Made by a program: the position numbers and the translations under genes
From: Gammaproteobacteria bacterium
GTDB lineage: Bacteria > Pseudomonadota > Gammaproteobacteria > Ga0077536
Length of the DNA: 64,000 nt
Assembly: GCA_963662545.2 (NCBI GenBank)
Contig: CAXXLL010000003.1
Location: 736,001 to 800,000, forward strand
Direction: 5' to 3'
Notes under the pieces: model-generated
Told to the model about the DNA's origin: nothing
Databases searched by the model: none
The model's input: only the letters and a program-made list of their open reading frames with translations
Shown here: positions 1,539 through 54,944 of the stretch, one piece after another
Position numbering within the stretch: the first letter of the stretch is position 1
Layout of the letters: every line of letters starts with the position of its first letter

Positions 1539-1543
1539 AGGTT

Positions 1544-1993: not shown

Positions 1994-1998
1994 CTCGC

Positions 1999-2421: not shown

Positions 2422-2423
2422 GC

Positions 2424-38174: not shown

Positions 38175-40070
38175 ATGACTCGATTGCCCGTGATCGTCGG
38201 CTTTGGCGGAGTCGGACCTGCCGGTCGTTCTTCGTTTCACCACGCTTACGACCGCATCATCTGGGAAAGCCTCGATCGGCGTCGCCGCCGCACCACCGTT
38301 ACCGCACTCTCTTCGATGATGAATCTCGCCTTCGAGCGGGACGGCGAACTGCGTGCACCGGACGGCACCGAAATCGATTCGCCGGCTTACGCGGAACTCG
38401 AGGCGAAGGTCCTCGCGGGAACACTCATCCGGCGCTTGGAGACTACCCACTTCGATCCGGACAGCGTGCCGGTCAACACGCCGCTAGCTATCACTGCCGT
38501 CAGCGGCACGCAGAGCATCCTCACCATCAGCGAGCGCGATCTGCCCGATCCGCTGCCCGCGGGCTGGCAGGTCGTTTCCAAGGCCGAGGGACGAGTCATC
38601 GTGCGGGTCGAGTGTGGTCAGCTGTGGGTCGAGACGCGGCGCAAACTGGCCGTGCAGTCTGCCGGACAATTACCGTCGGGCTTTGATCCCGCAGCACTCT
38701 ACAAATCACGATTTCATCCGCGCGGTTTGCAGCTCGTGATCATCGCCGCATCCGATGCGGTTCGTTCGATGGGTATCGAATGGTCGACCATTGTGGAAAC
38801 GGTACGTCCTGACGAAATCGCGGTCTATGCTGCTAGCGCAATGGCGCAACTCGACGGCAACGGTACCGGCGGCATGCTGCAGGCACGATTGCGCGGCAAT
38901 CGTGTCAGCTCGAAACAACTCCCGCTCGGTTTGAATACCATGCCCGCCGATTTCGTCAATGCTTATGTACTCGGCAGCGTTGGTGCGACGGGTGCTAATG
39001 CGGGCGCCTGTGCGACATTTCTCTACAACCTCCGCCTTGCCGTTGAGGACATCCAAAGCGGGCGCCGGCGGATCGCTGTGGTCGGTAACGGCGAGGCACC
39101 GCTGGTTCCGGAGGTCATCGAAGGTTACGCCGCGATGAGCGCGCTCGCCACCGACGACAACTTGTGCCGGCTCGATGGCAGCGACACGCCCGACTACCGC
39201 CGCGCCAGCCGGCCGTTCGGCGAGAACTGCGGCTTCACGCTGGGCGAATCCGGACAATATTTCGTGCTCATGGACGACGCGCTGGCAGTGCAGCTGGGGG
39301 CGCAGATCCACGGCGCCGTCACGGACGTATTCGTCAACGCCGACGGCTTCAAGAAATCCATATCTGCGCCCGGCCCGGGCAATTACATCACGCTCGGAAA
39401 AGCGGTTGCGGGCGCACGATCGCTGTTCGGGGACGCTGCCGTGCGCGATCGAAGCTTCGTTCAGGCACACGGATCCAGCACACCGCAAAACCGGACGACA
39501 GAGACACGCATCCTCGACCGCGTCGCGGCAGCATTTGAGATCAAGGAATGGCCGGTGACGGCGGTGAAGGCCTTCGTCGGCCACCCTCTTGCTCCCGCGA
39601 GCGGCGATCAGTTGGTCAATGCACTCGGTGTGCTGCGGCATGGCATCCTGCCCGGCATCAAAACGCTGGACCGTCTGGCCGATGATCTTTATAACGAACG
39701 CCTCAACATCCCGCTGTCAGACATCGATCTGGGCGAGCGTGCGCAGATCGCCTTTCTCAATTCAAAGGGCTTCGGCGGCAACAACGCGACTGGAACAGTG
39801 GTCTCACCTGCGGCTACCGAAGCGATGCTGACTAAACGATATGGCGCGAAGGCGATGTCCGCCTACCGCGCTAAGCGCGAGGCGGTTGAAGCTGAAGCAC
39901 TGGCCTACGACAGTGAGTGTCATGCTGGCCCGATGCAGCCGATCTACCGCTTCGGCGAAGCGTTGATCAACGAGGACGCGATCGCATTCGAAGGCGGTGA
40001 ACTCTCTATCCCCGGTTATAAACTAGGCGTGGAACTGTCCGGCAAAAACCTTTATCCAGACATGGTCTGA
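38175..40070 (+). CDS. fabY: Beta-ketoacyl-ACP synthase, FabY type
   Basis: MTRLPVIVGFGG..PAGRSSFHHAY, GACATFLYNL, VQAHGSSTPQNR, FLNSKGFGGNNATG; 631 aa. Confidence 0.9.
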   Translation: MTRLPVIVGFGGVGPAGRSSFHHAYDRIIWESLDRRRRRTTVTALSSMMNLAFERDGELRAPDGTEIDSPAYAELEAKVLAGTLIRRLETTHFDPDSVPVNTPLAITAVSGTQSILTISERDLPDPLPAGWQVVSKAEGRVIVRVECGQLWVETRRKLAVQSAGQLPSGFDPAALYKSRFHPRGLQLVIIAASDAVRSMGIEWSTIVETVRPDEIAVYAASAMAQLDGNGTGGMLQARLRGNRVSSKQLPLGLNTMPADFVNAYVLGSVGATGANAGACATFLYNLRLAVEDIQSGRRRIAVVGNGEAPLVPEVIEGYAAMSALATDDNLCRLDGSDTPDYRRASRPFGENCGFTLGESGQYFVLMDDALAVQLGAQIHGAVTDVFVNADGFKKSISAPGPGNYITLGKAVAGARSLFGDAAVRDRSFVQAHGSSTPQNRTTETRILDRVAAAFEIKEWPVTAVKAFVGHPLAPASGDQLVNALGVLRHGILPGIKTLDRLADDLYNERLNIPLSDIDLGERAQIAFLNSKGFGGNNATGTVVSPAATEAMLTKRYGAKAMSAYRAKREAVEAEALAYDSECHAGPMQPIYRFGEALINEDAIAFEGGELSIPGYKLGVELSGKNLYPDMV

Positions 40071-40075
40071 CCACT

Positions 40076-40501
40076 ATGCGTACTGATCAAAACAGTGGCG
40101 CAGATCATTGTTTCGTATGCGGTAGCGCCAATCCGATCGGCCTGAAACTCGAGTTTACCGTCGACGGCGATGTTTGCAGCGGTGAATTCACGTCCGCCGC
40201 CAACCATGCCGGCTTCGATGGCCTTACCCACGGTGGAATTATTTTCAGCGTACTCGATGACGCAATGGCGAACTGGTTTTTCCTTCAAGGTGCCCGCGGT
40301 TATACGGCCAAATCTCAAATTCGATATCGAGAAGCAATGCCCCTCGGCAGTACGGCCACGATCGAATGCACCATGACCAAACGCAAAGGCCGCCTCATTC
40401 AGCTCACGGCGCGCGCGATAAACCGCGACACCGGTAATGTAATCGCCGAAAGCGACGGCAGTTTCATGTTGGAGAATTTTGGTGATCTACCGTCCTCGTA
40501 A
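40076..40501 (+). CDS. PaaI family thioesterase
   Basis: CFVCGSANPIGL, HGGIIFSVLDDAM hotdog motif. Confidence 0.9.
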   Translation: MRTDQNSGADHCFVCGSANPIGLKLEFTVDGDVCSGEFTSAANHAGFDGLTHGGIIFSVLDDAMANWFFLQGARGYTAKSQIRYREAMPLGSTATIECTMTKRKGRLIQLTARAINRDTGNVIAESDGSFMLENFGDLPSS

Positions 40502-40879: not shown

Positions 40880-42127
40880 ATGCGAGAATCTATAGCGCTA
40901 GTTTCAGGCATTTTTTCCTTCTGCCTGCCGTTTTTGGCGGCGGCGGACCTCGAACCAAACCTACGGCCGGAATTGGCCGCGAGTCAGAGAAGCTATGAAA
41001 ACCTGATCGAAACGCTGGGGCGATCCCATGGCCCGCTCGCGTTCGAACTCGCCGAACAATGGTCCGCGCTCGGATTCCTGCAACGCGAATCGCGTAATTA
41101 CTCGGGCGCCATCGACAGCTTCGAACGTGCCCTGCATATCGAACGGGTCCACAAGGGCTTGTATCATCCGGATCAAATCCCCTTGATCGAACGACTGATC
41201 GAGAGCAACCGCGCGCTCGGCGCATGGTCGGAGGTCGCGCAGAACCACAAGCTTCTTCAATTCGTCAATGACCGCGGAAGGCCGCGCATCAGCCCCGAGC
41301 GGATCGCTACTTTGCGCAAGATCGCGCTCTGGAATTTGGAAGCGGCCGATCTGCCAACAGGCCAGGCGCCGTTCCGTCATCTGCAGACAGCCCAGGACCT
41401 CACCGAAGAAGCCCTTGAACTGGTGGAATCACGCCACCAGGACTCCGCGCTTACTCAAATAGAGATTCTAAACCTGAAAGCAGCGATCGCCTTTCGGATC
41501 GCTCACCACATGACGACCTGGATCGGTGAACCGATACACGGTGTCACCGCAGATAGCATCATATCCACCACGTCAAATGACGTAAGTGACCTGATATTTC
41601 GTCAAAATCTGGTCATCAGCAATTACAGCCAAGGACGCGCCGCTCTCGATCGCGCCAAGCGGATCGCCTACGAGAAGAACGACAAGGCAAGCCAGGCGCG
41701 CGCCGAACTGTACCTGGGTGACTGGCACCTATTGTTCAATCGGCGAAACGCGGCGGCCGAGCACTACGCCAAAGCGCAGCGGCTGTCGCAGGAGGCAAAT
41801 GTCAACTTGTTCGAAACGTATCGCCGCCTGCCGAATTTCATCGACGGCGACGACGACCGCTTGGCATCCGCGCCATCCGGGGGTCATGTAAACTATGTGC
41901 GTACGCGCTTTGACATCGATCGGCAGGGTCGTGTGCGCAACGTGGAAATCCTGGAAGTGAATCCACCAGGCAAGTCGGGGCTGGCCAGGCGCGCACGAAA
42001 ACAGCTGCGCGAGACGCGGTTTCGACCCCGTTACGATCGAGGAAAGCCGGTGAAATCCAAAGGTGTCGAAATACGATTTTTATTTCCGCAAGCCGATACC
42101 GCCAAACGTGCGGAAGGAGCGACCTAG
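40880..42127 (+). CDS. TPR-containing protein with a C-terminal TonB domain
   Basis: Signal peptide; TPR-like helices (YSGAIDSFERALHIERVHKGL); C-terminal YVRTRFDIDRQGRVRNVEIL...RFRPRYDRGKPV. Confidence 0.8.
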   Translation: MRESIALVSGIFSFCLPFLAAADLEPNLRPELAASQRSYENLIETLGRSHGPLAFELAEQWSALGFLQRESRNYSGAIDSFERALHIERVHKGLYHPDQIPLIERLIESNRALGAWSEVAQNHKLLQFVNDRGRPRISPERIATLRKIALWNLEAADLPTGQAPFRHLQTAQDLTEEALELVESRHQDSALTQIEILNLKAAIAFRIAHHMTTWIGEPIHGVTADSIISTTSNDVSDLIFRQNLVISNYSQGRAALDRAKRIAYEKNDKASQARAELYLGDWHLLFNRRNAAAEHYAKAQRLSQEANVNLFETYRRLPNFIDGDDDRLASAPSGGHVNYVRTRFDIDRQGRVRNVEILEVNPPGKSGLARRARKQLRETRFRPRYDRGKPVKSKGVEIRFLFPQADTAKRAEGAT

Positions 42128-43065
42128 TGGAATCCCGATTGTTCAATTCGTGTTTTAAACTCGCCCTGTTGATCCTGGTGGCCTGCGCGCTCGGCGCATG
42201 CAATACGAATCCGCCGCGGCCTGAGCCGGCACCTCTCCCGCGAACGCTCCCGGAACCTCCACCACCGCCCCCGCAGCAATCGAGTACTCACCAGGAGCCA
42301 GCGGGCACGAACGAGGTGCAATCGGCAGAACAGCAGTCCTACCCATCGCCCAGAGCGGACGCGGCCGAAGTTGAAGTCGAGGAAATCAGCCTCGACGGTG
42401 AGTCGGAAGCATCCACGCAAACCGCAAGCACCGCAACCACGCAGGCGCAACGCCAAACGGGAGGCGAGGCTGTCCACAGCACACCGTCGGGCGGTGGCGG
42501 CGGTTCCACTCCACGCGGCGCAGCCTACGAGGCAGCTGCCGGCGAGCTCGCCAGAAGCACCGGCGTCGTTTTACTGAACCCGGCCGGCACCGAGACAGAA
42601 GAAAATCTGACCGGGCCGAATATGAACATTGGCGCCCAAACAGAAGCCGAACAAATCGCGCGGCTCAACAGCGAATTGGACGGCCGCCTCGCCGAATTCG
42701 ACGAGCGGATGCGCCGCGCGCGCGCGGCGGCCGAAATGGATAAAAACCAGGCCTACGGTGGTGATGGCAGCCCCGCGGGAATCGAGGGCGGCCGGGGCCA
42801 GCGATACGAAGCACCCGACGAGCGGCGCGGTGAGGGCGGTGCCGCCGCCACTGGAACCGGGCTCGGTAATACACCCGATCTCGTCGGAGAAACCGGCGGA
42901 GGGGGGCGGCACATCGCCGCAGCAGCACCTCCGCCCAATATCCCAGACGGCCGCAACGACGACATCGTGGCGCGTCAATTGCGTGAAGCCGCAAGCAAGG
43001 AAGCCGACCCAATTCTGCGCGAAAAACTTTGGGAGGAGTACCGCAAGTACAAGGCGGGACTCTGA
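42127..43065 (+). CDS. Lipoprotein with a disordered linker and a conserved-looking C-terminal helical motif
   Basis: Lipobox LGAC; Pro/Gly-rich; ends IPDGRNDDIVARQLREAASKEADPILREKLWEEYRKYK. Confidence 0.75.
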   Translation: MESRLFNSCFKLALLILVACALGACNTNPPRPEPAPLPRTLPEPPPPPPQQSSTHQEPAGTNEVQSAEQQSYPSPRADAAEVEVEEISLDGESEASTQTASTATTQAQRQTGGEAVHSTPSGGGGGSTPRGAAYEAAAGELARSTGVVLLNPAGTETEENLTGPNMNIGAQTEAEQIARLNSELDGRLAEFDERMRRARAAAEMDKNQAYGGDGSPAGIEGGRGQRYEAPDERRGEGGAAATGTGLGNTPDLVGETGGGGRHIAAAAPPPNIPDGRNDDIVARQLREAASKEADPILREKLWEEYRKYKAGL

Positions 43066-43069
43066 TTTG

Positions 43070-44266
43070 ATGCGAATTGGAAGCTTAAGTACCGCTTGCT
43101 CGATCGGTTTGCTATTCGCACTGGCGGGTTGTGCCACGCAAACCGTGCGTTCAACGGCTGTGGTACCCGTCAATTCGGTCGTCGAATCCATCCCGGACGA
43201 CTTGCTGCTCGATGTCAACATCGCGATTCTCGATCCCGGTATCGAGAATCTTGATCCCAAGAAAACGACGACGACGCCCGGGATCAGGCGCGCCGAAGGA
43301 CATTACATCGCCGAGCGGCTCAAGCATACGCTCGAATCCTCACGGCAATGGGCTGCGGTTCGAGTCGTGCCTGAAATCGGGCGTGAAGTCGATGTCACGG
43401 TGTCCGGCAAGATCTTAAAGTCCGACGGCGAAACCCTGAAAATCCAGATCACCGTGAACGATGCAACAGGGCGCACCTGGTTCACGAGGACCTACGACGA
43501 GCAAGTGAGCCGGTTCGCCTATGACGCGGAGATCAGAAGGCGGCAGGAACCCTTCCAAAACGTCTACAACCGGGTCGCCAATGATATGCGCGAATACCTC
43601 ATGCGGCAGGACCTGACCACGCTAGGTAACATCAGGACGACCAGCAAACTCCGCTTCGCCGCACGATTCGCACCAGAACCTTTTGCCGATTACATCGAGG
43701 TGGATTCCAGGGGACATTACTCGATTCAGCGGCTCCCCGCGGAAAACGATCCGATCCTACAGCGCGTTCGCCAGATCCGGGTGCGTGACGAGATGTTCGT
43801 CGATCGTCTGCAGGATTTCTACCGGGAATTCGATCGCGACATGACGACTTCCTATGACAACTGGCGCCTGGAAAGCTATACGGAGACAGAAGCCCTGCGT
43901 GAACTCAAGTCACAGGCATTGGCGCGGACGCTCGGCGGCGCGCTCGCCGTAATCGGCGGCATCCTTGCGCAAGGCAGCAACAGTGCGACGGCGCGGACCG
44001 CGGGCGTGCTCGGCATCGGGGTAGGCGCCTACATGTTCAAGAGCGGCCTGGATAAGAACGCCGAAGCGCGCATCCATACCGAAGCACTCAAGGAGCTTTC
44101 CGAATCGTTGAACGCCGAAATACAACCCCAGACGATCGCGCTGACTGACCGCACGGTCGAACTTTCGGGGACGGTCGAAGAACAGTACCGGCAATGGCAG
44201 GAGCTGCTGAATCAAATCTATCTCATTGACACAGGGCAGGCATCACCCGACATCATCAGCCATTGA
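43070..44266 (+). CDS. Hypothetical lipoprotein with a Gly-zipper-like hairpin
   Basis: Start ATG 43070; lipobox LAGC; hydrophobic Gly-rich pair LGGALAVIGGILA / AGVLGIGVGAYMF near the C-terminus. Confidence 0.8.
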   Translation: MRIGSLSTACSIGLLFALAGCATQTVRSTAVVPVNSVVESIPDDLLLDVNIAILDPGIENLDPKKTTTTPGIRRAEGHYIAERLKHTLESSRQWAAVRVVPEIGREVDVTVSGKILKSDGETLKIQITVNDATGRTWFTRTYDEQVSRFAYDAEIRRRQEPFQNVYNRVANDMREYLMRQDLTTLGNIRTTSKLRFAARFAPEPFADYIEVDSRGHYSIQRLPAENDPILQRVRQIRVRDEMFVDRLQDFYREFDRDMTTSYDNWRLESYTETEALRELKSQALARTLGGALAVIGGILAQGSNSATARTAGVLGIGVGAYMFKSGLDKNAEARIHTEALKELSESLNAEIQPQTIALTDRTVELSGTVEEQYRQWQELLNQIYLIDTGQASPDIISH

Positions 44267-45825
44267 ATTCATTGAGTACTGACACCCAAAGACCCGCAAC
44301 GCGAAACCCGATGATTGAACCGGCATCCTTCAAGATCCGGGCTAATGAGGCCGACATGCGCACCTCTGGAGAGCGATCTTCGCTCAAGGTCGTGCTTGCC
44401 GCATCGGCGATTTCGTTTCTGGTGTTCGTGCTGTTCGTCGTGGTCGTCGTGCTGCCGAAGTGGGTTGCCGGTCCCGAGGTGCCCGCGAAGCTGGTTCAAG
44501 GAAGTGAAATAACTCCGAACGAGCCCGATCCGGAAGGCACCGCTGGCACCGATGCCGGCGAGATCTCACAAGATCGCGCGACGACGGACGCAGATCGCAC
44601 GAACACACAGGATCTCCTGCGCTCAGCATTGGAAAAACTCGATTCGCTCGAATCGATGGATGCTGAATCCTGGGCTAAAACGGAAATCCACTTGATTCGC
44701 GAGCGGATCGCCGAAGGCGAGAAAGCCTATCGAGAAAAACGCTACGTCGCTGCAAAAAACAGCTATCTCGACAGCGTCGAGCGTATCGAACGACTATTGA
44801 GCGGCATCCCCGATATCGTCGAAAAGCTGACGGACGCGGGATACCTCGCACTCGACAACGGTGATTCCGTGCAGGCGGCAGCCGCCTTCGACGAAGTCCT
44901 CGCCATCGATCCCGATCATGCCAGAGCCAAGCGCGGCCGCGCGCGGGCTGAGACGCTCGATCAGGTCCTCGCCCTGGTCGGGCAGGCGGAAGGCTACGAG
45001 CGGATGCAACAGATCGACAAAGCGCTGACGGCGAACCGGGAGGCGGTGAAAATCGATCCGGATGCGCCCGGGGCCGCCGCTGCGATCACGCGGATCGAAC
45101 GTGCTGAACGTGAATCGGCGTTCCACACGGCCATGTCGAGCGGCTTTCGCGCTTTCGAAATTCAGGAATTCCGAAAAGCGCGCGAAGCGTTTCAACGCGC
45201 AGTGAAGCTCGACCCCAATGCGCCGGAAGCCGAATCCGCCATTAAACAGACGGACAACGCGGAGGCCTCCTTCAAGATCGAGCGTTACCTGGGTGGTGCA
45301 CGAAAGGCCGAGCGTGAAGAGCAATGGCACACGGCGGCCAAACAATTCGAAGCTGCCCTGAAAATCGATCCTCGTTTGTCACCAGCGATCGCCGCCAAAC
45401 AAAACGCCGATATGCGGCACCGGCTCGATGTCAAACTCACCGCTTACCTCGCGCGCACCGACCGCTTCTCTGCCGACGCCGTTCACAAGGAAGCAAGTCG
45501 AATACTGGCAAACGCACAGGGCGTTCCGACCCCCGGTCGCGTACTCCAAAAGCAGATTGCCGATCTTTCGCACGCACTGAAGCTCGCGCGTACACCAGTC
45601 GCCGTAAGCCTGCAGTCGGATAATTTAACCGCTGTTACGATCTACCGCATCGGTGACCTCGGCCATTTCGAAGTTCGCGAAGTCCCCCTCCTGCCTGGCG
45701 AGTACACGGCGGTCGGAAAACGAGACGGATACCGTGACGTCCGCGTAGAATTCGTGGTGAAACCCGTCGATCAGGGACCTGTAATAACGGTTAGGTGCGA
45801 CGAGCAATTCGCCTTCGGAAGTTGA
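44263..45825 (+). CDS. Membrane-anchored TPR protein with a C-terminal PEGA-like domain
   Basis: One TM; repeated A..AF..A..IDP TPR motifs; C-terminal PGEYTAVGKRDGYRDVR. Confidence 0.82.
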   Translation: MNSLSTDTQRPATRNPMIEPASFKIRANEADMRTSGERSSLKVVLAASAISFLVFVLFVVVVVLPKWVAGPEVPAKLVQGSEITPNEPDPEGTAGTDAGEISQDRATTDADRTNTQDLLRSALEKLDSLESMDAESWAKTEIHLIRERIAEGEKAYREKRYVAAKNSYLDSVERIERLLSGIPDIVEKLTDAGYLALDNGDSVQAAAAFDEVLAIDPDHARAKRGRARAETLDQVLALVGQAEGYERMQQIDKALTANREAVKIDPDAPGAAAAITRIERAERESAFHTAMSSGFRAFEIQEFRKAREAFQRAVKLDPNAPEAESAIKQTDNAEASFKIERYLGGARKAEREEQWHTAAKQFEAALKIDPRLSPAIAAKQNADMRHRLDVKLTAYLARTDRFSADAVHKEASRILANAQGVPTPGRVLQKQIADLSHALKLARTPVAVSLQSDNLTAVTIYRIGDLGHFEVREVPLLPGEYTAVGKRDGYRDVRVEFVVKPVDQGPVITVRCDEQFAFGS

Positions 45826-45831
45826 ACGCCA

Positions 45832-47928
45832 TTGAGCACACGAGAATCGACGCCGGAATCTAATGACACAGATCCTGGCAACGTCATCAAGGCAACGCGA
45901 TTCCGCCCGCCCACGGGCGGACCCGAGCTGCCCACGGTCCGGATCCCGTGGACACTTTCGATCGTCGTCGCCGTTCTCGCCACAACCGTCTGGGCAGCAT
46001 GGTTCGTATGGACCGCGCGCTCCGTCGCAATCAAGGTCAGGCCCGATATCGCTTCGGTATTCGTCGAAGAGTGGCTCGCGCCCCGCGTCGGTAATCACTG
46101 GCTCCTGCGACCAGGGCAGCGCCGCATTCGGGTCGAGGCCCCGGGATACACGACGTTCTCCGGAACGATAAAAGTTGGCGACGCGCCCTTGCAGACCCAG
46201 CAGGTGACCCTCCAAGCGCTGCCCGGACACCTTCGTATCGAAATAGAGCCGGTGGCCCAGGCCGGTGTATTCATCGACGGATCGGAACGCGGATCCGCGC
46301 CGGGCATCATTAAAGACATTGCGGCCGGTTTGCGCGAAATCCAGATCCGCGCGCCACGCTACCAAACATTCGTCGCGACCGTCGAGGTGGAAGGGAAAGG
46401 GATCGAGCAAAATCTGACCGCGGTGCTGGATCCGGCCTGGGCCGCGGTCGCGATCGATTCAAAACCCTCGGGTGCGCAGGTAATCGTCGATGGTGAAAAC
46501 CTTGGCGAGACTCCGCTCGACGTCGAATTGCTGCAGGGGCGGCGCGTCGTGCAGATCAAGAAAGCCAAATATAAAAGATGGCAGCAGACGCTCAAGATCG
46601 TGCCCGGGAATCGCGTGAACCTGGGCGAGATCGTGCTTATTAAGGCGGACGGCCACTTGAAGATCGACTCTTCACCCCGCGGCGCGAGTGTGACAGTGGA
46701 CGGCCAGTTCGAAGGCCGTACGCCGATTGAACTTGCGCTGACTCCCGACAAAAAGCATCGGGTTCGCCTTCTGAAAGAAGGGTTTAAATCGGCCGAACGG
46801 ACCATCGAACTCGAATCGGAAAAGCTCGAAAACATGAACATCGAACTTGCCCCCGAACTCGCAACGATACGTCTTTTGACCTCGCCCGAAGACGCCGAAC
46901 TGTTGATCAACGGAACACCGAGCGGCAGCGCGACGCAAACCCTGAACCTGCCGACCCACGAACACCGGATCACAGTGCGGCGGGCGGGATACGCGACCTA
47001 TGAAACGACCATCACGCCGCGCAAAGGGGTGGAGAAGCGATTCAAGATCCGGCTTCGCACCGAGCAGGAGATGGCACGCGCTGGACGACAGCGTAAGAGT
47101 TCCAAGAAAGGGTTCGCCACCACTTTCGCGGGCCAGGAAATGAAACTCTTCACGGGCGGGCGGATCGTGATGGGATCTTCACGCCGGGAGAGCGGCCGGC
47201 GGGCAAACGAAGTGCAGCGCGAAGTCGCATTGAAGCGGCCGTTCTACCTGTCGATCAAGGAAGTCACCAATGGCGAGTTCCGGAAATTCCTGGCCAGTCA
47301 CCAATCGAAGCCGTTCGAAAAAAACGAACTCAATAAAAATGAACAACCCGTTGCCGACATCAGTTGGGAACTTGCGGCCACCTATTGCAACTGGCTGAGC
47401 CGGCGCGACGGCTTACCGCCGTTTTACCAGATCAAGTTCGGCGAGGTCCTCGGCATCAATCCCGACTCCACCGGTTACCGGCTGCCAACCGAGGCCGAAT
47501 GGGAATGGGTGGCACGGGTTCCGCCCAAGGGGACGCGCACGATCTTTCCCTGGGGAGAAAAGTTTCCGCCGCGTGGGCGTTCCGGAAATTATGCGGATTC
47601 GACCGCTGCCAATATCATGGGTGACACGATCGAGGGATACTCGGACGGATTCGCGGTCGCGGCGCCCGTTGGGAGCTTTGCCGTTAATTTAAGGGGTCTT
47701 TATGACACGGGCGGCAATGTGGCTGAATGGGTACACGACTACTATGATGCGGCTCCGAGCGTCGCGCCGTCGCTCGATCCCCTGGGGCCCGCGGCGGGCG
47801 CCCAGCACGTGATCAAGGGTTCCAGTTGGGCGCACGGTTCGGTGACCGAGCTGCGGCTTGCCTACCGGGATTACGGCGGCGAGGGACGCGACGACCTTGG
47901 TTTCAGATTGGCACGATATGCGCAGTAA
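45832..47928 (+). CDS. PEGA-repeat + SUMF1/FGE-sulfatase domain protein
   Basis: TM; several S.P.GA.V.VDG..G.TP PEGA repeats; EVTNGEF, YRLPTEAEWEW, GLYDTGGNVAEW, DLGFRLAR. Confidence 0.92.
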   Translation: MSTRESTPESNDTDPGNVIKATRFRPPTGGPELPTVRIPWTLSIVVAVLATTVWAAWFVWTARSVAIKVRPDIASVFVEEWLAPRVGNHWLLRPGQRRIRVEAPGYTTFSGTIKVGDAPLQTQQVTLQALPGHLRIEIEPVAQAGVFIDGSERGSAPGIIKDIAAGLREIQIRAPRYQTFVATVEVEGKGIEQNLTAVLDPAWAAVAIDSKPSGAQVIVDGENLGETPLDVELLQGRRVVQIKKAKYKRWQQTLKIVPGNRVNLGEIVLIKADGHLKIDSSPRGASVTVDGQFEGRTPIELALTPDKKHRVRLLKEGFKSAERTIELESEKLENMNIELAPELATIRLLTSPEDAELLINGTPSGSATQTLNLPTHEHRITVRRAGYATYETTITPRKGVEKRFKIRLRTEQEMARAGRQRKSSKKGFATTFAGQEMKLFTGGRIVMGSSRRESGRRANEVQREVALKRPFYLSIKEVTNGEFRKFLASHQSKPFEKNELNKNEQPVADISWELAATYCNWLSRRDGLPPFYQIKFGEVLGINPDSTGYRLPTEAEWEWVARVPPKGTRTIFPWGEKFPPRGRSGNYADSTAANIMGDTIEGYSDGFAVAAPVGSFAVNLRGLYDTGGNVAEWVHDYYDAAPSVAPSLDPLGPAAGAQHVIKGSSWAHGSVTELRLAYRDYGGEGRDDLGFRLARYAQ

Positions 47929-48154
47929 ACGCATCAGAAATTCGCTTTGCGCGATGTCGATGAGCCTGATCTTGACATGGGCGAGCCCCGCTTTTAGCCA
48001 AGTGGAAGAAACTGACGAACGCCTGAGTTCCGGCCACGAACTCGGTAAGGAAACGCTGCCCGAGCATCGCGTCCGCCCCCTGCCCTTTGATACCTTTAAG
48101 CCCTCCGAGGAAATTTCCGAAGACTATCCGGTACCGTTCCCGGTAGACATCTAG
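47918..48154 (+). CDS. Small secreted protein
   Basis: Signal peptide (ASPAFS); C-terminal FKPSEEISEDYPVPFPVDI; overlaps the upstream stop. Confidence 0.75.
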   Translation: MRSKRIRNSLCAMSMSLILTWASPAFSQVEETDERLSSGHELGKETLPEHRVRPLPFDTFKPSEEISEDYPVPFPVDI

Positions 48155-48165
48155 AGTCCTCAAGC

Positions 48166-48963
48166 ATGAAGCACAATCCGTTGTCAGAGTTTTTCTACCA
48201 GCTGATCGCGTTGTTTCTTGCCATCATTATCGTTCATACGATTTACGTCACCATCATCAGGCCGGGAGCCCAGCTTGTCCTGGAAGAACAGCGCGCGCTT
48301 CAGTCCGAAGGGTTGGCCTACGACATGGACCGTTCCCTCTACGTAGTCATCAAAGACTACGAACAGGAAGCCTGCTTCGTACTGATGCTGTGGGCGACGG
48401 CCATCATGGGCTACAAGGCGAGGTTCCTGCTTGGCGAGCGGCAGTTACTCCGCCGACCGATGATCGAAGTGGAATCGGGAACGCGGATTTTGCCGCAGGA
48501 CGCGCGCAAGTATTCGCGCCCACTGCAGGCCTTGCCCGACCATGAACGCGAATATCTCCTGCCCCGCGCACTGCTGTCGGCTTTACAGCGATTCGGTTCG
48601 ACACAGAATATCCAGGACGTCTCGCAGACGATCCGCGAGATATGTGAAACCGAGGCGGAGCGGCTCGATTCAGAGCTCTCGATGATCCGCTACATCGTTT
48701 GGGCCATACCCTCCATCGGATTCATCGGCACGGTGCGCGGTATCGGCATGGCGCTCGGCCAGGCGCATCGCGCGGTGGAAGGCGACATCGTCGGGGTGAC
48801 GGTAAGCCTCGGCGTAGCATTCAATTCGACCTTCATCGCGCTCATCATCAGCCTGTTCATCATGTTCCTGATGCATCAACTCCAGTTGCTGCAGGAACGA
48901 CTCGTGCTCGACAGCCAATCGTATTGCGATATAAACCTGTTGCGGGTGCTGGCGGTACGCTGA
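48166..48963 (+). CDS. MotA/TolQ/ExbB proton channel family protein
   Basis: IVWAIPSIGFIGTVRGIG and SLGVAFNSTFIALIIS; four TMs. Confidence 0.9.
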   Translation: MKHNPLSEFFYQLIALFLAIIIVHTIYVTIIRPGAQLVLEEQRALQSEGLAYDMDRSLYVVIKDYEQEACFVLMLWATAIMGYKARFLLGERQLLRRPMIEVESGTRILPQDARKYSRPLQALPDHEREYLLPRALLSALQRFGSTQNIQDVSQTIREICETEAERLDSELSMIRYIVWAIPSIGFIGTVRGIGMALGQAHRAVEGDIVGVTVSLGVAFNSTFIALIISLFIMFLMHQLQLLQERLVLDSQSYCDINLLRVLAVR

Positions 48964-48976
48964 GGGATAGCGACTC

Positions 48977-50287
48977 ATGACCTTGCGTCTCATCGAGCTG
49001 AACGATTCCGGTGTGCGCGTTTTTCGCGAAGGCAAGATCATTTGCGAAAGCCCGGGCGTCGCCATCGTCGAACCTAATAAGGTCATCACGGGGACGGCGG
49101 CGCAGGCGTCGGCGCAATTGAACCCGCGCGCGGTTAACAACCGGTTCTGGCAGCACCTGAACGAGGTCAAGCTGCCGAACGCGAACCGCCAGGTCAGGCA
49201 CCATGCTGACCTCGCTTATCACCACTTGAGTACCGTGCTGGCGCAAGCCGGCCGCCCGCCGGACGCCGTACTCGCGGTACCCGGCCACTATGACGAACGG
49301 CAACTCGCGCTGTTACTCGGCATCGCACAAGCCTGCGATCTCAAGGTCTCGGGATTGATCGATAGCGCCGTTGCCGCCGTGGCGGGAGCGCTGCCCGAGG
49401 GGCGATACACGGTCGCCGACATCCATCAACACCACGTTACACTGACCTTGGTCGAGGTCGACGAAACCGCACGGCGCAGGTCGGCGAAAACGATCGACCA
49501 AACGGGCCTCAACCGCATCTACGAAGCCTGCGTCGACTTGATCTCCGATGCGTTCATGGAGCAGTCGCGATTCGATCCTCTACACGAGGCGGATACCGAG
49601 CAATTGCTCTACACGCATCTGCCCAAATGGCTCGAAGAGGCAGCGAACGCACCGGAGATCCAGATCGCCGTGGAATACCGCGGCAATCGCTTCAGCGTAA
49701 AAATACCTACGCGGGAATTCAGCCGCGTGACGGAGAATGTGCTCGCTCCGATCAACGATCATCTGCCGGGCGACACCGGCTTATTGCTGTGCGCCAGGCT
49801 CGCCCAGCTCCCAGGTTCGGTAGATCACCTGGCCGCGATCGATGTGCTTGCCGTGGACGCATGCTACCAGGGCGTTGCCGAACACCGAGTCAAGCTGGCC
49901 GGGGACGGGTCGGGCATGCCCTTCGTCACCGCGCTGCCACGCGCTACTAATCCGGTATTGGGCAGGTCGAAGCCAAGGTCCGAAAAAACGGACGCCCTCG
50001 GCGCCGCGACACACCTGTTGGCGGGGAGCAGGGCGTTCGCCCTGTCAAACTCGCCGCTCTACCTGAAACCGGACGGTACCGTCGACAAGACCCCTGAAGT
50101 AACCGAAGCGTGCGCGATCACGCTGGACGCCGGTATCGCTACGCTGCGTGTCAATGGCGCTGATACCCGTTTGAACGGCGAGCTGGTATCTGGAAGCTGC
50201 CAGGTGAGACCGGGCGATCACATTACTCTCAAGGGTGGGCGGGCTTTGTTCATTCCGATAGCGGTATTCGACTCCGGTGCGTTATAA
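48977..50287 (+). CDS. Divergent Hsp70/actin-like fold protein with a C-terminal FHA-like beta domain
   Basis: IELND.., SPGVA..VITGTAA..LNP, AVLAVPGHYDERQL..A..GLIDSAVAA, VADIH mirror Hsp70 NBD elements; C-terminal RLNGELV..VRPGDHITL. Confidence 0.6.
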   Translation: MTLRLIELNDSGVRVFREGKIICESPGVAIVEPNKVITGTAAQASAQLNPRAVNNRFWQHLNEVKLPNANRQVRHHADLAYHHLSTVLAQAGRPPDAVLAVPGHYDERQLALLLGIAQACDLKVSGLIDSAVAAVAGALPEGRYTVADIHQHHVTLTLVEVDETARRRSAKTIDQTGLNRIYEACVDLISDAFMEQSRFDPLHEADTEQLLYTHLPKWLEEAANAPEIQIAVEYRGNRFSVKIPTREFSRVTENVLAPINDHLPGDTGLLLCARLAQLPGSVDHLAAIDVLAVDACYQGVAEHRVKLAGDGSGMPFVTALPRATNPVLGRSKPRSEKTDALGAATHLLAGSRAFALSNSPLYLKPDGTVDKTPEVTEACAITLDAGIATLRVNGADTRLNGELVSGSCQVRPGDHITLKGGRALFIPIAVFDSGAL

Positions 50288-51353
50288 ACGACGCGGCTTT
50301 TCCGCAATCAGCCTTGCGTTTCTCGACATCATGTCCTGCGGATTCGGCGCGGTGGTGCTGCTGTTTCTGATCATCAAGCATCAGACCGATGTCGCCATTC
50401 AGGTACCGGAATATGATCTCTCGGTCGAAGTCGATCAGATCAGGCAACAGATCGGCGATGCCGAAACGGTGATCGGTCGCCTCAAAAGCCAATCGCGTGA
50501 TACCGATTCGCGCATCACCGCGGCCAAAAAACGGGCCGAGGAGATCAAGGGTGCGCTCAAGACAGCGACGTCGCAAACGCGAGTGAGCACCACCGGCAAC
50601 CGTGAAATCGACGCGCTCAAGGCGACCTTACGACGCATGGAAACCGACCGCAAAAACGTGCAGTCGCAAATCTATGAAAAATCACGCCATGTACGCAGCT
50701 TCGTCGGCGACGGTAATCGCGAATATCTCACCGGAATCCAGCTTGGCGGCCAACGCATCCTGATCCTGCTCGACGCCTCGGCGAGCATGCTGGACGACAC
50801 TATCGTCAACATCATCCGCCGGCGGAACATGGATGACGCGACAAAACGCCGCTCGCGAAAGTGGCGACAGGCCCTCGCCACGGTCGACTGGATCACGGCC
50901 CGTTTTCCGGCCCAAAGCCAATATCAAATTTATACGTTCAACACCGAGGCCAAGCCGGTGCTGGCGACGACGCGCGGAAGGTGGCTGCCGGTATCCGACA
51001 ACCGGCAGTTAAATGACGCTGTCGCCATGACCAAAGACATCGTCCCGCAAGGGGGTTCGAGCCTCGAGCGGGCGTTCCTCGTGATCACGCAGCTAAGCCC
51101 GCGGCCGGACAACGTTTTTCTCGTCACCGACGGATTGCCGACGCAGGGGCTCAAACCACCGCGCGGTACGACGGTATCGGGGCGCGAACGCCTGAAGCTG
51201 TTCGAATCTGCCGTGACGCGCATCCCGCGGGGCATCCCCGTCAACGTCATCCTGCTCGAAATGGAAGGCGACCCGATGGCCCCGTCGGCATTCTGGCAAA
51301 TAGCCCTATACACAAAGGGCGCTTTTTTGAGCCCGGCGAGGGACTGGCCGTGA
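50277..51353 (+). CDS. ExbD/MotB-like TM + coiled coil + vWA protein
   Basis: SLAFLDIMSCGFGAVVLLFLII; coiled coil; LLDASASM and LVTDGLP. Confidence 0.85.
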   Translation: MRYKRRGFSAISLAFLDIMSCGFGAVVLLFLIIKHQTDVAIQVPEYDLSVEVDQIRQQIGDAETVIGRLKSQSRDTDSRITAAKKRAEEIKGALKTATSQTRVSTTGNREIDALKATLRRMETDRKNVQSQIYEKSRHVRSFVGDGNREYLTGIQLGGQRILILLDASASMLDDTIVNIIRRRNMDDATKRRSRKWRQALATVDWITARFPAQSQYQIYTFNTEAKPVLATTRGRWLPVSDNRQLNDAVAMTKDIVPQGGSSLERAFLVITQLSPRPDNVFLVTDGLPTQGLKPPRGTTVSGRERLKLFESAVTRIPRGIPVNVILLEMEGDPMAPSAFWQIALYTKGAFLSPARDWP

Positions 51354-52348
51354 AGCTCAACCGGCGCGAAAACGAAGCGACTAGCATCGCTTTTCTCGAC
51401 GTCATCACCTGCGGATTCGGCGCGATCATCCTGCTCCTCATGATCGCCAAATTCGGCGATCCACCCGAGCCGGAGGTCCCGGACGACCCGCGCATCTCTG
51501 AGATCTCCGCCTTGCAGCGCAGCCTTTTCAAGATGCAGAGCCGCGCACGCGAGGTCGAAACCGCGATCGTCTCCAAGGACCAGCAACTGGCGGTGTGGAA
51601 ATCGGAATCCGTGCGCCTGGACAAGGAATTGATTGCGGCACGAAACCGCGGAAAAAGCATTCGGGATACGGCCGCCGCTAATGCCGCCATCCTCGGTGAA
51701 CTCAAAATCGCCCGGCAGAAACTTACAGAGGAGATGCGGCGCCTGTACCAGCAGCGCGACCGGGTCCGGACCGACCTGGTCGGAGGCATACCCATCGACA
51801 GCGAATACATCATCTTCATCATCGACACCTCCGGCAGCATGTTCCGCTACGCCTGGCCAAAGGTGATCGAGCAGTTCGTGGAAACCCTCACCGTCTACCC
51901 GAAATTGAAGGGGATCCAGATCATGAACGACATGGGTGCCTACATGTTCTCCAGCTACCGGGGAAAGTGGATCCCGGACACGCCCGGACGCCGACAGGCG
52001 ATCATCGATCGCCTGCGCACCTGGAACGCATTCTCAAACAGCAGCCCGGTCGAGGGCATTACGGCCGCGATTCGTTCATTTTATTCAGTCGACAAGAAGA
52101 TCAGCATTTACGTCTACGGCGACGAGTTCACGGGGCGTTCGATCCGCGAGGTCGTCCAATACATGGAAGCTATCAACCGCAAGGATGCACAAGGGAATCC
52201 GCTCGTTCGCATCCACGCGATCGGGTTTCCCGTGCAGTTCGCCAATCCACCCCACCTCCAGGGCACGGGGATCCGGTTCGCAACGCTCATGCGTGAACTT
52301 ACGCGCAGGAACGGCGGCACCTTCGTCGGCCTTAATTCGTTTCGATGA
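51350..52348 (+). CDS. ExbD/MotB-like TM + coiled coil + vWA protein (paralog)
   Basis: SIAFLDVITCGFGAIILLLMI; coiled coil; IIDTSGSM and VYGDEF. Confidence 0.85.
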   Translation: MKLNRRENEATSIAFLDVITCGFGAIILLLMIAKFGDPPEPEVPDDPRISEISALQRSLFKMQSRAREVETAIVSKDQQLAVWKSESVRLDKELIAARNRGKSIRDTAAANAAILGELKIARQKLTEEMRRLYQQRDRVRTDLVGGIPIDSEYIIFIIDTSGSMFRYAWPKVIEQFVETLTVYPKLKGIQIMNDMGAYMFSSYRGKWIPDTPGRRQAIIDRLRTWNAFSNSSPVEGITAAIRSFYSVDKKISIYVYGDEFTGRSIREVVQYMEAINRKDAQGNPLVRIHAIGFPVQFANPPHLQGTGIRFATLMRELTRRNGGTFVGLNSFR

Positions 52349-52469
52349 TTGGGTATGGACGACGCTTTTGGAAACGCGTTCGCAGAGACCTCGCATAATG
52401 GATCACCCATGCCAACAGGCGCGGGATGGTCTAAGCTTTAAGATCCCATTCCGCTGCACGGGGCAGCCT

Positions 52470-53078
52470 ATGATGAGATCCCGTCTCGCCGTCTTTCTCC
52501 TGGCCGTTGTGTTCGCGATGGTGCTCACAGGATGCCAGAAGAATGTGACGCTCAAGGTGCAAACCGAGATACCCGAACCCCTGGTCACGAAGCTGCCGCT
52601 TTCCGTCGGCGTGTATTATCCCGACGCGTTCCGCCGCTACGAATACGCCGAAACCACCGAGGAGCGCGGGACCTGGCGCATCGAGAGCGGCGACTCCCAG
52701 GTCAGGGTCTTTAATCGCATTCTCAGCGATCTGTTCTCGGAATTTCGCGAACTCAACAGCCCGCAAGCGGGCGCCGTCGAACTGATCGTCGTCCCCGAGA
52801 TCGCGAAGATGCAGTTCTCGATGCCGAAAGAAACGGGCTTCGACTATTTCGAAGCCTGGGTGGAATACGTCGTCAAGCTGCAAACCGGCGACGGCGAGGA
52901 GCTACCCTCGTGGCGCTTCACTGGCTACGGGCAGGCAAGGACCGGGCGCTTCGCTGGTTTCGAAACAGGCCTCGCCGATTCGCTGAGCGACGCACTCAGG
53001 AACGCTGGCGCGCAACTGGCCACGGGCCTGCCCGCGCATCCACCGGTCAAGCAGAGGGCCCAAAGGACAGGTCTTTGA
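52470..53078 (+). CDS. Hypothetical lipoprotein
   Basis: Start ATG 52470; lipobox LTGC. Confidence 0.75.
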   Translation: MMRSRLAVFLLAVVFAMVLTGCQKNVTLKVQTEIPEPLVTKLPLSVGVYYPDAFRRYEYAETTEERGTWRIESGDSQVRVFNRILSDLFSEFRELNSPQAGAVELIVVPEIAKMQFSMPKETGFDYFEAWVEYVVKLQTGDGEELPSWRFTGYGQARTGRFAGFETGLADSLSDALRNAGAQLATGLPAHPPVKQRAQRTGL

Positions 53079-53734
53079 TCTTACGCCTGATATGCCCAGT
53101 CCTGGTGTGTGCCCTGTTATCCGGCTGTAAGAGCCACACCGTCATCGATCGGCATCAGGAGATCCCCGTCGCCATGGAGAGTGGGGACTCCATCGTGCTG
53201 TTGGGCCGCAGTACGCGACTGGCGGAAAGCGGCGATCACGATTTTGTCGAGTGCGTTGGCAAGGCACTCGAAACGCGAAACGCAAACCTGGACATCATCG
53301 AAGAAAACGAATTCGTCGACGCCATGTATCCCTGGTTTGAAAACACCACCGCGCCGACGGAGGTAGGTATGCTCGAGCCCCTATTCAAAAATGACGCTAT
53401 TACCAATCGTTTTGCAGAACTCGCCATTAAGTACCTGATATGGATCGAAGGACGCACCGAGACCCTGGAGAGTATCGGCGGCATTACTTGCTCCATCGGA
53501 CCCGGTGGTGGCGGCTGTTTCGGATACAAAAGCTGGGATGACGAAGCCGACTACGTGGCCGCGATCTGGGACATTGACCAACAAGCGGATGCGGCGAGAA
53601 TCGGAACGCGGACCAACGGAACTTCGTACATGCCGGCCGTGATCATACCGATACCGCTGCTTGCCAGGGTGAAGTACACGGCCTGTGACGCGATGGCAGG
53701 GCAAATTTCGGATTATCTGAGTCTGCCTGAATAG
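53075..53734 (+). CDS. Hypothetical lipoprotein
   Basis: TTG start overlaps the previous TGA; lipobox LSGC; CSIGPGGGGCFG and PAVIIPIPL motifs. Confidence 0.75.
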   Translation: MILRLICPVLVCALLSGCKSHTVIDRHQEIPVAMESGDSIVLLGRSTRLAESGDHDFVECVGKALETRNANLDIIEENEFVDAMYPWFENTTAPTEVGMLEPLFKNDAITNRFAELAIKYLIWIEGRTETLESIGGITCSIGPGGGGCFGYKSWDDEADYVAAIWDIDQQADAARIGTRTNGTSYMPAVIIPIPLLARVKYTACDAMAGQISDYLSLPE

Positions 53735-53861: not shown

Positions 53862-54536
53862 ATGATGAACAACGGCCCGCTATCACCACCATTCCGCGTA
53901 TATATCCTCGACGACCATAAGTTCGTAACTGAAATCTTAACCCATCGTCTGAATTCTGATCCGAATATCGAAGTTGTAGGGATCGGGAACAAGGGAAGTT
54001 CCGCACTGCACTTCATACAAACCCACCGTGTCGATATAGCTCTCCTAGATATGGAGCTCGAAGACGATGATGGCGTCCACGTCGCCGTTGAAATGATGAA
54101 ATTCGATCCTCGCATTCGCGTCGTGGGTTTATCAGCACATGTCACGAATCACTATCCACTGGCACTTCTCGAAGCCGGCGGGCGTGGATATATTTCGAAA
54201 AAAGCTTCCTCTACTGAAATAGTCGAAGGCATCCGCCGTGTAGCTCGCGGCGATATGACCATTAGTCCCGATGTTGCTTTTCACCTCGCAACTGAAGTTC
54301 AAGAAGCCGGGCCAGTAAGCAAGATTCGTGGCCTTACTTCCAAAGAGAGCACGATTCTAAAGTTGTATAGTCAGGGATATTCGGTTGACGAAATTGCCGA
54401 AAAACTGGGTATCACTGCCAAAACAGTTCAATCCCACCGCATCAACTTAAAACGAAAACTCAATATCCGTACCGATGTGGGCTTGTGTCTAGTGGCTTTA
54501 AAAGCCGGAATAATCGGGATTAGGGATACGAAATAA
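53862..54536 (+). CDS. NarL/FixJ (UvrY/GacA-like) response regulator
   Basis: ILDDH, ALLDMEL, GYISK receiver; LuxR HTH LTSKE..EIAEKLGITAKTVQSHR. Confidence 0.93.
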   Translation: MMNNGPLSPPFRVYILDDHKFVTEILTHRLNSDPNIEVVGIGNKGSSALHFIQTHRVDIALLDMELEDDDGVHVAVEMMKFDPRIRVVGLSAHVTNHYPLALLEAGGRGYISKKASSTEIVEGIRRVARGDMTISPDVAFHLATEVQEAGPVSKIRGLTSKESTILKLYSQGYSVDEIAEKLGITAKTVQSHRINLKRKLNIRTDVGLCLVALKAGIIGIRDTK

Positions 54537-54782: not shown

Positions 54783-54944
54783 ACATCAAGCTTGATGGAT
54801 CGTGCGAAGTTCTGTCGCGTGCATCAATTTTTATGAATTTTCTAACAAACCTCGATACCAACCAAACTGACCTGCTGAAGAACGAAATCGGTCAAGCAAA
54901 GGTGCGCCTAGGGATTTGCCTGTTCATGGCGGCCTATTTTTATA

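Follow-up and report, generated by a model that had tools for sequence, protein, structure and literature searches.

The stretch of DNA considered here (the window) comprises 64,000 nucleotides (nt) of contig CAXXLL010000003.1 from the gammaproteobacterial assembly GCA_963662545.2, positions 736,001 to 800,000 of the forward strand. Twelve plus-strand open reading frames (ORFs), designated A to L (Table 1), occupy positions 40880-53734 and encode a MotA/TolQ/ExbB-family channel subunit (G), two membrane-anchored proteins with von Willebrand factor A (vWA) heads (I and J), two bitopic inner-membrane proteins (D and E), four lipoproteins (B, C, K and L), a secreted protein (A), a small exported protein (F) and a cytoplasmic protein (H). 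The original prediction, made from the letters alone, described these genes as a 12-gene envelope machine driven by the proton-motive force (PMF). Its observation is confirmed and its interpretation is partly supported. A cluster centred on such a motor does recur as one entity in related genomes; the conserved unit is eight genes (B, C, D, E, F, G, I and J) and not twelve, while A, H, K and L are accessory, being additions of one large gammaproteobacterial subclade that are present in part of the family only. With moderate confidence we interpret the cluster as a PMF-driven trans-envelope machine that works by Tol- or Ton-like catch and pull, with the I/J axle itself as the transducer.

The start codons were chosen to give sensible N-termini. 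The claim of co-directional genes, many of them overlapping or abutting, is correct: base 42127 is common to A and B, the E/F, H/I, I/J and K/L junctions overlap by 4-11 nt, and the remaining gaps are 4-14 nt, with the exceptions of C/D (about 45 nt with the chosen start of D) and J/K (121 nt). Pfam has no family for B, C, F, H, J, K and L, and an NCBIfam scan of the 12 proteins gave nothing above cut-off.

Table 1. Genes and features of the cluster, followed by flanking and other features. Positions are those of the window unless a contig or locus is named; TM, transmembrane; MIDAS, metal-ion-dependent adhesion site; aa, amino acids.
Feature	Position	Strand	Remarks
A, secreted TPR + TonB_C protein, 415 aa, accessory	40880-42127	+	TonB_C 4.6e-7, above cut-off; TPR_2 4e-4, below cut-off
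B, lipoprotein with long tether, core	42127-43065	+	lipobox; conserved C-terminal helix 42925-43062
C, lipoprotein, 398 aa, core	43070-44266	+	Cys21 invariant in 22/22
D, bitopic inner-membrane TPR protein with C-terminal beta domain, core	44311-45825	+	tail motif IEPASF, 44314-44331
E, bitopic inner-membrane PEGA-FGE protein, core	45832-47928	+	tail motif VIKATRFRPP, 45883-45912
F, small exported protein, 78 aa, core	47918-48154	+	signal peptide; FPVDI-COOH at 48137-48151
G, MotA/TolQ/ExbB-family channel subunit, 265 aa, core	48166-48963	+	PF01618 (MotA_ExbB) 1.3e-13
H, cytoplasmic protein with predicted Hsp70-NBD fold and FHA-like domain, accessory (one large subclade)	48977-50287	+	
FHA-like beta domain of H, residues ~345-430	50009-50266	+	weak FHA similarity
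I, TM helix + coiled coil + vWA head, core	50277-51353	+	VWA_2 6e-6, at cut-off
TM helix of I with Asp17	50307-50375	+	MIDAS DASAS at 50772-50786
J, paralogue of I, TM helix + coiled coil + vWA head, core	51350-52348	+	paralogy by tblastn
TM helix of J with Asp17	51380-51448	+	MIDAS DTSGS at 51824-51838
K, lipoprotein, 202 aa, accessory	52470-53078	+	Cys22 invariant in 10/10
L, lipoprotein, 219 aa, accessory	53075-53734	+	lipobox C18 and four further Cys
Ketoacyl-synthase-like gene and 4HBT thioesterase gene	38175-40501	+	upstream flank
LuxR-type response regulator gene	53862-54536	+	downstream flank
ISL3-family transposase	55121-56062	-	in low-GC stretch 54800-59300
Histidine-kinase-like ORF	56743-57924	+	in low-GC stretch 54800-59300
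DDE_Tnp_1 transposase fragment	57887-58621	-	in low-GC stretch 54800-59300
Secreted J-head/I-head fusion, single 473-aa ORF	C3:2715581-2717002 (L063:13581-15002)	+	~1.93 Mb away, same contig
ExbB/TolQ-like gene	2424-3083	-	second vWA-motor locus
ExbD-like gene with TM Asp	1999-2421	-	second vWA-motor locus
ExbD-like gene, Asn replacing TM Asp	1544-1993	-	second vWA-motor locus
TM protein: Ser..His...Ser helix, Pro/Glu-rich linker, vWA domain with DxTGS	within 417-1715	-	second vWA-motor locus
784-aa ORF	3290-5644	-	adjoins second vWA-motor locus

Results

The conserved unit

The gene order is kept in all 38 related loci examined (12 + 20 + 6), one other proteobacterial class included. A lack of such conservation had been named as something that would refute the original prediction, which withstands this test. 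Twelve of them were found through homologues of H (uncultured Gammaproteobacteria, Pseudomonadota and Chromatiales metagenome-assembled genomes), and here the order is kept as far as the contigs reach. The order B-C-D-E-(F)-G-(H)-I-J was also found in 20 loci from 20 genomes and in six more loci, four of which come from the other class; the four loci of a non-gammaproteobacterial family (f265) have B-C-D-E-G-I-J in the same succession.

A tblastn comparison over 19-kb stretches from the 20 genomes recovered I and J in 20/20, G, D and E in 18/20 each, C in 17/20, B in 15/20, H in 13/20 (14 with its short form), K and L in 7/20 each and A in a few. Of these stretches, one ends early at a contig boundary and another (L054) has only G-I-J. 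Orthologues of A were present in 6 of 30 loci by BLAST, plus locus L084; F is too short for BLAST at such distances. Of 400 genomes sampled from the class, 37 have a match to J, and these represent 30 of 321 genera (a tally that includes one unpublished genome, G039); within the family to which the window belongs, 16 of the 18 other genomes sampled have the system. Among 8000 candidates scored, 6320 were matches to J; those with names belong to Sneathiella, Rhodospirillales, Magnetovibrio and Chromatiales, with no Idiomarina among them, and the Sneathiella and Rhodospirillales sequences represent the second class.

The channel gene G is mobile within the system. It lies beside I/J in 18 of the 20 loci and is placed after J in genome G129 (L043). 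In genomes G204 and G302 it is found on a different contig from the cluster (45-71% identical), where tblastn around the relocated gene detected no other cluster gene; all four genomes tested (4/4) have G.

These data bear on the simplest alternative, according to which two or more unrelated operons stand side by side and do not form one machine. The absence of A, H, K and L from many loci would fit it, as would the positions of G after J or on another contig and the reduced locus L054. We consider it very unlikely: the B-C-D-E-(F)-G-I-J order is held down to 30-40% identity and in two classes, most neighbouring genes overlap or adjoin at their start and stop codons, and H is predicted to bind E (see below).

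A separate observation concerns the non-gammaproteobacterial loci. On a tree of J, which is quick and unrooted, the f265 loci nest inside the gammaproteobacterial rows without H; this hints at transfer between classes.

Boundaries and surroundings

Flanking genes of other kinds stand on both sides of the cluster, so that the boundaries 40880-53734 are right. The pair of ketoacyl-synthase-like and thioesterase genes lies upstream also in loci L001, L002, L004-L006, L008-L010, L043 and L047, with the thioesterase alone in L007. The LuxR-type regulator lies downstream in L001, L002, L004-L006 and L008-L010, directly after J or L. The synthase, thioesterase and regulator genes are kept beside the cluster in the closer lineage only. 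The GC content of the cluster (0.56-0.61) equals that of the surrounding genome, and values of 0.47-0.54 occur only downstream of 54 kb, among transposase genes.

MotAB-like 5:2 motors can also serve defence, as in Zorya. An anti-phage or conflict system with a MotAB-like sensor of this kind could be proposed for the cluster on account of the transposases and the drop in GC just downstream. A PADLOC scan of the 12 proteins gave only coiled-coil noise on I and no real match to a defence model; there is no nuclease or other effector domain in the cluster, its GC content is that of its surroundings, and both the occurrence in nearly all sampled genomes of the window's family and the flanking synteny in the closer lineage speak for vertical inheritance. 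Such inheritance together with the lack of an effector domain does not fit a defence system, and we regard this explanation as extremely unlikely. In those parts of Kaur et al. 2020 (PMC7159879) that concern vWA/Hsp70 conflict systems, MotA does not figure and the cluster is not covered.

The motor trio

The assignment of G to the MotA/TolQ channels and of I and J to vWA partners with a membrane Asp is borne out. In G, T189 (GTVRGI) and T222 (NSTF) are invariant in 23/23 orthologues; they presumably correspond to the conserved threonines of TolQ/ExbB, T145 and T178 in TolQ. I and J each begin with an Arg/Lys-rich stretch of about ten residues followed by the helix sFLDvmsCGfGA, in which F15, D17, C21 and G24 are invariant in 40/40 I/J N-termini from 20 genomes; the Ser-His-Leu-Ser (SHLS) pattern is absent from the helix, as read from the same 40 N-termini. 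In I, coiled-coil-type matches cover residues 46-157, and D17 and the MIDAS residues D166, S168 and S170 (DxSxS) and D285 (a later Asp) are invariant in 22/22 orthologues. J has no Pfam match; its identity with I is 20-27% in tblastn matches over the whole region, and D17, D159, S161, S163 and D258 are invariant in 24/24 orthologues.

The likeness of I and J to ExbD/TolR appears limited to the Asp helix. PF02472 (ExbD) has five matches in the genome, none within 40880-53734 and none on I or J, and Pfam gave no OmpA/MotB match for any of the 12 cluster proteins. The genome has its own TolQ/TolR/TolB locus and FliG elsewhere and nine MotA_ExbB-family genes in all; the TolB_N, TolQ-like and ExbD-like matches sit together at 1.674-1.676 Mb of the same contig (C3). 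The cluster is therefore an additional system and not a replacement, and the original prediction was right that it is not a Ton, Tol-Pal, flagellar, Agl-Glt or type IX secretion system (T9SS) locus.

It was also claimed that none of the systems cited for comparison describes the cluster exactly. This overlooks a published computational prediction of the motor core. The main text of PMC12204202 (Mol Biol Evol 2025) predicts a class of TolQ-like pentamers in which a heterologous pair of TM-anchored vWA proteins, bearing a conserved Asp, serves as the dimeric axle. According to the same text, the vWA axle genes co-occur tightly with tolQ homologues and without tolR/exbD, mostly form heterologous pairs and lack SHLS; AF3 models place the “transpore helix” in the TolQ-like pentamer, with the Asp pair ringed by threonines. 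The family is described there as mainly of Proteobacteria and Verrucomicrobia, Idiomarina is cited, and no function is stated. The cluster agrees with this description in that a TolQ/MotA-family gene stands beside two paralogous TM-vWA genes without tolR/exbD, in the Asp of the TM helix, the channel Thr and the absence of SHLS, and in its occurrence in Proteobacteria. It differs in that the main text of PMC12204202 treats the trio only, and here the trio lies inside an eight-gene unit with accessories. PEGA, FGE, sulfatase and Hsp70 do not occur in that main text and “FHA” occurs only as FhaC; its Fig. 4c and supplements may show neighbours. No further paper on a cluster of this kind emerged from a full-text literature search with combinations of PEGA, FGE, MotA/TolQ/ExbB, TolQ and vWA. 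Within this scope, the partner set, the FPVDI and B motifs, the fold of H, its predicted clamp and the head fusion described next are not found in print.

The heads of I and J occur a second time in the genome, fused in one ORF (Table 1). Its order is a signal peptide, a J-type head (72% identity, J residues 120-332) and an I-type head (70%, I residues 117-358); both DxSxS motifs are retained, and the Asp helix and the coiled coil are absent. The neighbours are unrelated metabolic genes. A search of 31 related genomes detected the fusion in one, and it is absent from both genomes of the same genus. By the Rosetta-stone argument it supports joint action of I and J heads; its product may compete, in soluble form, with the heads of the motor.

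Some genomes (G795:C255, G788:C34 and G191:C2) have, in addition to the main pair, a divergent I/J-type pair with 33-41% identity.

The inner-membrane proteins D and E

The description of E as a PEGA-FGE protein (FGE, formylglycine-generating enzyme) is firm: Pfam finds PEGA in five stretches (3.5e-58) and FGE-sulfatase (1.7e-39), after an N-terminal TM helix. For D, predicted to be an inner-membrane TPR-PEGA protein, the TPR part stands (25/26 orthologues) and the PEGA part is not supported, with no PEGA at E<=0.1 in any of 26 orthologues and none detected in D by hhalign against E. The C-terminal 89 aa of D gave only CarboxypepD_reg in Pfam, at E 0.1. In hhalign comparisons of D with E only the tail and TM region matches (E 2.5e-4, probability 43%), and the motif [IVL]-x-[PA]-x-x-[FYW] is common to their cytoplasmic tails.

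The N-terminus of E consists of this tail and the TM helix, without a lipobox. The FGE catalytic Cys pair, expected near the domain C-terminus, would fall in a region that in our own reading is KGSSWAHGSVTELR and is Cys-free in 22/22 aligned sequences; the FGE fold of E thus appears to be without the catalytic Cys pair. Against the GldK model E scores 96.5 bits (2e-27; cut-off 350), and against the GldJ model 43 bits (2e-11; cut-off 458).

These matches, both far below cut-off, lead to the alternative of a gliding-type apparatus for surface motility or adhesion, in which the motor moves an adhesin or a track, as Agl-Glt does with the vWA adhesin CglB, or as GldLM powers the T9SS/gliding machinery that contains GldK and GldJ. 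A TolQ-type motor, TPR, TonB_C (in A), vWA and the FGE fold are common to such systems. The likeness to GldLM (PorLM) of T9SS and gliding extends to a 5:2-type motor, an axle reaching far into the periplasm and an FGE-fold partner apparently lacking the catalytic Cys. A role in gliding is raised as a possibility in PMC12204202 too, but there for the TonB/TolA-like transducers that make up its first vWA family. We nevertheless consider a gliding apparatus unlikely. The vWA heads stand on a coiled coil of about 100 residues from the inner membrane, with the cell surface out of reach; the conserved set has no outer-membrane barrel, secretin, SprA/PorV-type translocon or large adhesin, and Pfam and NCBIfam find no GldL/M/N, SprA or PorV homologues in the cluster. 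Some carrier genomes are as small as 1.7-2 Mb. A, which has the TonB_C domain, is accessory, and E is TM-anchored and has PEGA repeats, unlike GldK/PorK and GldJ, which are lipoproteins. The roles in motility, adhesion and secretion that were originally suggested are a guess.

Lipoproteins and small exported proteins

The remaining assignments of the original prediction hold as well. A carries TonB_C, together with a TPR match under the cut-off, and has a cleavable N-terminal signal peptide and no TM anchor. The lipobox Cys is found in B, C, K and L, and F has a signal peptide and a conserved C-terminus.

B is conserved only in its last ~45 residues (tblastn matches at query positions ~267-312 in distant loci), which form a predicted helix rich in charged residues. 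They stand at the end of a low-complexity, Pro/Gly/Ser-rich tether of variable length. Pfam has nothing for B as a whole; the C-terminal 46 aa alone gave only DUF6381, at E 0.022.

For F, a small ORF between E and G/H with a hydrophobic N-terminal segment and the ending [FLW]PxD[IFS], mostly FPVDI, is present in 25 of 28 loci. F.PSE.IS.D.PV.FPVDI is common to the longer forms; those of 41-52 aa, the shortest, have little beyond the hydrophobic segment and SLNSPA.FPVDI. The mature part has no Pfam match.

The AF2 model of C (predicted local distance difference test, pLDDT, 76.7) consists of an N-terminal alpha/beta domain, a long helical hairpin that encloses a Gly-rich low-confidence stretch, and a small C-terminal domain. 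Foldseek relates the N-domain to FlgT (1.5e-4), CT253, XCC0632, PelC (target-normalised TM-score, TMt, 0.57), CsgG and the TolB N-domain, with E from 1.5e-4 to 1e-2; a profile search of PDB sequences gave nothing usable for C. In L, C18, C60, C139, C148 and C204 are invariant in 10/10. K and L have no Pfam relative and no PDB relative in profile searches; there are Atlas leads only, from K to YajG/DUF4136-type and from L to CsgG/CT253/DUF4823-type lipoproteins.

Export machines are known to contain ring proteins of the TPR and FGE-fold types. One could accordingly think of polymer or protein export or assembly in the manner of Pel, curli or T9SS, with a ring of C-type proteins near the outer membrane and a motor that energises passage; the resemblance of the C N-domain to the ring-forming PelC, CsgG and FlgT and the lead from L would agree. 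The structural matches are weak (query-normalised TM-scores of 0.16-0.23), the Atlas matches are leads only, and the conserved neighbourhood has no glycosyltransferase, polymerase, outer-membrane channel, cargo gene or ATPase. We therefore hold export to be quite improbable.

Protein H and its predicted clamp

In its modelled fold H is the nucleotide-binding domain (NBD) of Hsp70; it is not an Hsp70 by sequence and is without the substrate-binding domain. The AF2 model (pLDDT 89.7, from a 46-sequence alignment) gives the NBD fold for residues 1 to ~325, and the top 50 Foldseek matches in PDB are all Hsp70-family NBDs (E 7e-17 to 4e-15, TMt up to 0.69). Pfam HSP70 has no match in any of the 46 H-family members (46/46), and phmmer against PDB gave only E 0.1. 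The second phosphate-loop site reads DIHQHH and is not Gly-rich; this is our own reading, made against what we take to be the Hsp70 motif. The C-terminus was weakly related by a PDB profile search to the FHA domains of Ki-67 (E 0.007) and KIF13B (0.012); Pfam FHA matches 2 of the 46 members (best E 0.011), and two homologues are named “FHA domain-containing” at source. The claimed degenerate Hsp70/actin fold thus stands for the first ~325 residues and was incomplete for the rest of the protein and for its presumed partner. At E<=1e-3 the H family, which is unnamed, comprises 2064 cluster representatives, and at E<=1e-30 it comprises 1107, most of them 420-470 aa long.

The predicted complex of H with residues 1-48 of E scored 0.76 in all three runs, the best of three controls being 0.00; such a score is attained by 58 of 80 solved complexes and by 2 of 110 mismatched pairs. 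The runs share at least 72% of their contacts, and the pLDDT of the partner is 46-52, so its fold is uncertain. The confident contacts involve E residues 16-28, which are the motif, and H residues 71-82, 107-119, 127 and 311-318; of the 28 contact residues of H, 8 are in columns conserved at 90% or more, compared with 57 of 436 overall. The tail motif is present in E of 24/25 loci that carry H, compared with 0/10 without it. The first scoring gave 23/24, and L058 was added after a profile search revealed a short H there. The H profile search found nothing in the 10 genomes with H-less loci and recovered H in 5/5 positive controls. We presume that H clamps the tail motif common to D and E; the clamp is a prediction, and the H-E model supports binding without showing it.

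The short H (~307 aa, without the FHA-like domain) was seen in loci L057 and L058, where D is also short (~260 aa).

Discussion

Bacteria use 5:2-type motors to drive flagella, import nutrients, maintain the outer membrane, glide and carry out type IX secretion. On the interpretation favoured here, that of a Tol/Ton-like machine with an I/J axle, G would form a TolQ/MotA-like pentamer of such a motor. The axle would be an I/J heterodimer in place of ExbD/TolR/MotB, and each Asp helix would enter the pentamer. From there I and J would each extend a coiled coil of ~100 residues into the periplasm, capped by a vWA head whose MIDAS is intact. As protons pass through G to the Asp pair, the I/J stalk would turn or ratchet, and the MIDAS heads would catch an acidic ligand on a partner linked to the outer membrane, force being applied by catch and pull. 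The best ligand candidates are the C-terminal helix of B on its long tether and the FPVDI C-terminus of F. D (TPR) and E (PEGA/FGE) would constitute a static scaffold spanning the periplasm; together with them, C, K and L, with their PelC/FlgT/CsgG-type folds or leads, could build the part proximal to the outer membrane. In the subclade of the window, H would clamp the D/E tail motif and couple the scaffold to the cytoplasm, as PilM clamps PilN, and its FHA-like domain may couple the scaffold to regulation. The 5:2 stoichiometry, the I/J heterodimer, the identity of the ligand and the direction of force are what we infer. The physiological role is probably the maintenance of the outer membrane or envelope.

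The complete proposal, in which the eight-gene machine has an axle that is itself the transducer, the MIDAS heads reel in the B helix or the FPVDI tail against the PEGA/FGE/TPR scaffold and H serves as a lock in the subclade, is tentative, and we would sooner doubt it than rely on it.

Several points weigh against our interpretation. The comparison of the I/J N-termini with the five ExbD/TolR proteins of the genome by hhalign was not significant (probability 7% over 21 columns), with the Asp residues aligned. The identity of the vWA ligand is a guess. The shortest forms of F have only 12-17 residues after the hydrophobic segment; should this segment stay uncleaved and act as an anchor, such a tail would be too short to reach the heads of an extended stalk. 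The cluster has no outer-membrane beta-barrel and no peptidoglycan-binding domain that would define the far end of the machine. As to H, the FHA assignment of its C-terminus is weak, and the H-E score may partly reflect the memory of the model for actin-fold/peptide complexes, our own alignments having been supplied. On the J tree the H label needs only two changes, so that the co-occurrence of H and the tail motif amounts to about two independent events and its statistics are weak. One of the two changes is a secondary loss, and L052, the sole such locus that still has E, is without the tail motif.

The comparison with known systems is instructive. With Tol-Pal the cluster shares the TolQ-family channel, a TPR protein, outer-membrane lipoproteins and probably the catch-and-pull logic; in the closer lineage, the 4HBT thioesterase gene just upstream recalls ybgC, which heads tol-pal. 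It differs from Tol-Pal in having no TolR, TolA, TolB or Pal and in an axle that itself bears the heads. ExbBD-TonB is similar in its MotA/ExbB-family channel, its Asp-bearing helix and the TonB_C domain (here in A); unlike it, the cluster has no TonB-dependent receptor, I and J have no match to PF02472, and in A a signal peptide replaces the anchor helix. The PilM-PilN and GspL platforms offer a parallel for H, a cytoplasmic member of the actin/Hsp70 superfamily predicted to clamp an N-terminal tail motif of bitopic proteins. They differ in that H is nearest to Hsp70 NBDs and has an FHA-like domain, its partners would be TPR and PEGA-FGE proteins, and there is no pilus or secretion ATPase.

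If the complete proposal is true, the cluster would represent a third mode of PMF force transduction, beside the side-mounted TonB/TolA and GldM, and would serve an envelope function so far unrecognised in model organisms. The cluster supplies a parts list for vWA-axle motors, for which the main text of the 2025 prediction (PMC12204202) named no partners and no function: eight co-inherited genes, two candidate MIDAS ligand elements, a predicted clamp with its peptide motif and a head fusion that speaks for an I/J heterodimer. Culturable carriers, as named at source, are Elongatibacter sediminis, which has a homologue of H, and Sneathiella spp., in which it becomes testable what these motors pull on.

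Two minor observations concern other parts of the window. Right after the cluster, the low-GC stretch 54800-59300 (0.47-0.52) looks like an insertion zone. Near the start of the window, a second vWA-motor locus on the minus strand (417-3083) is of an already published type: it fits the “TolA/TonB-like vWA force transducer” beside tolQ and two heterologous tolR that is described in the main text of PMC12204202.

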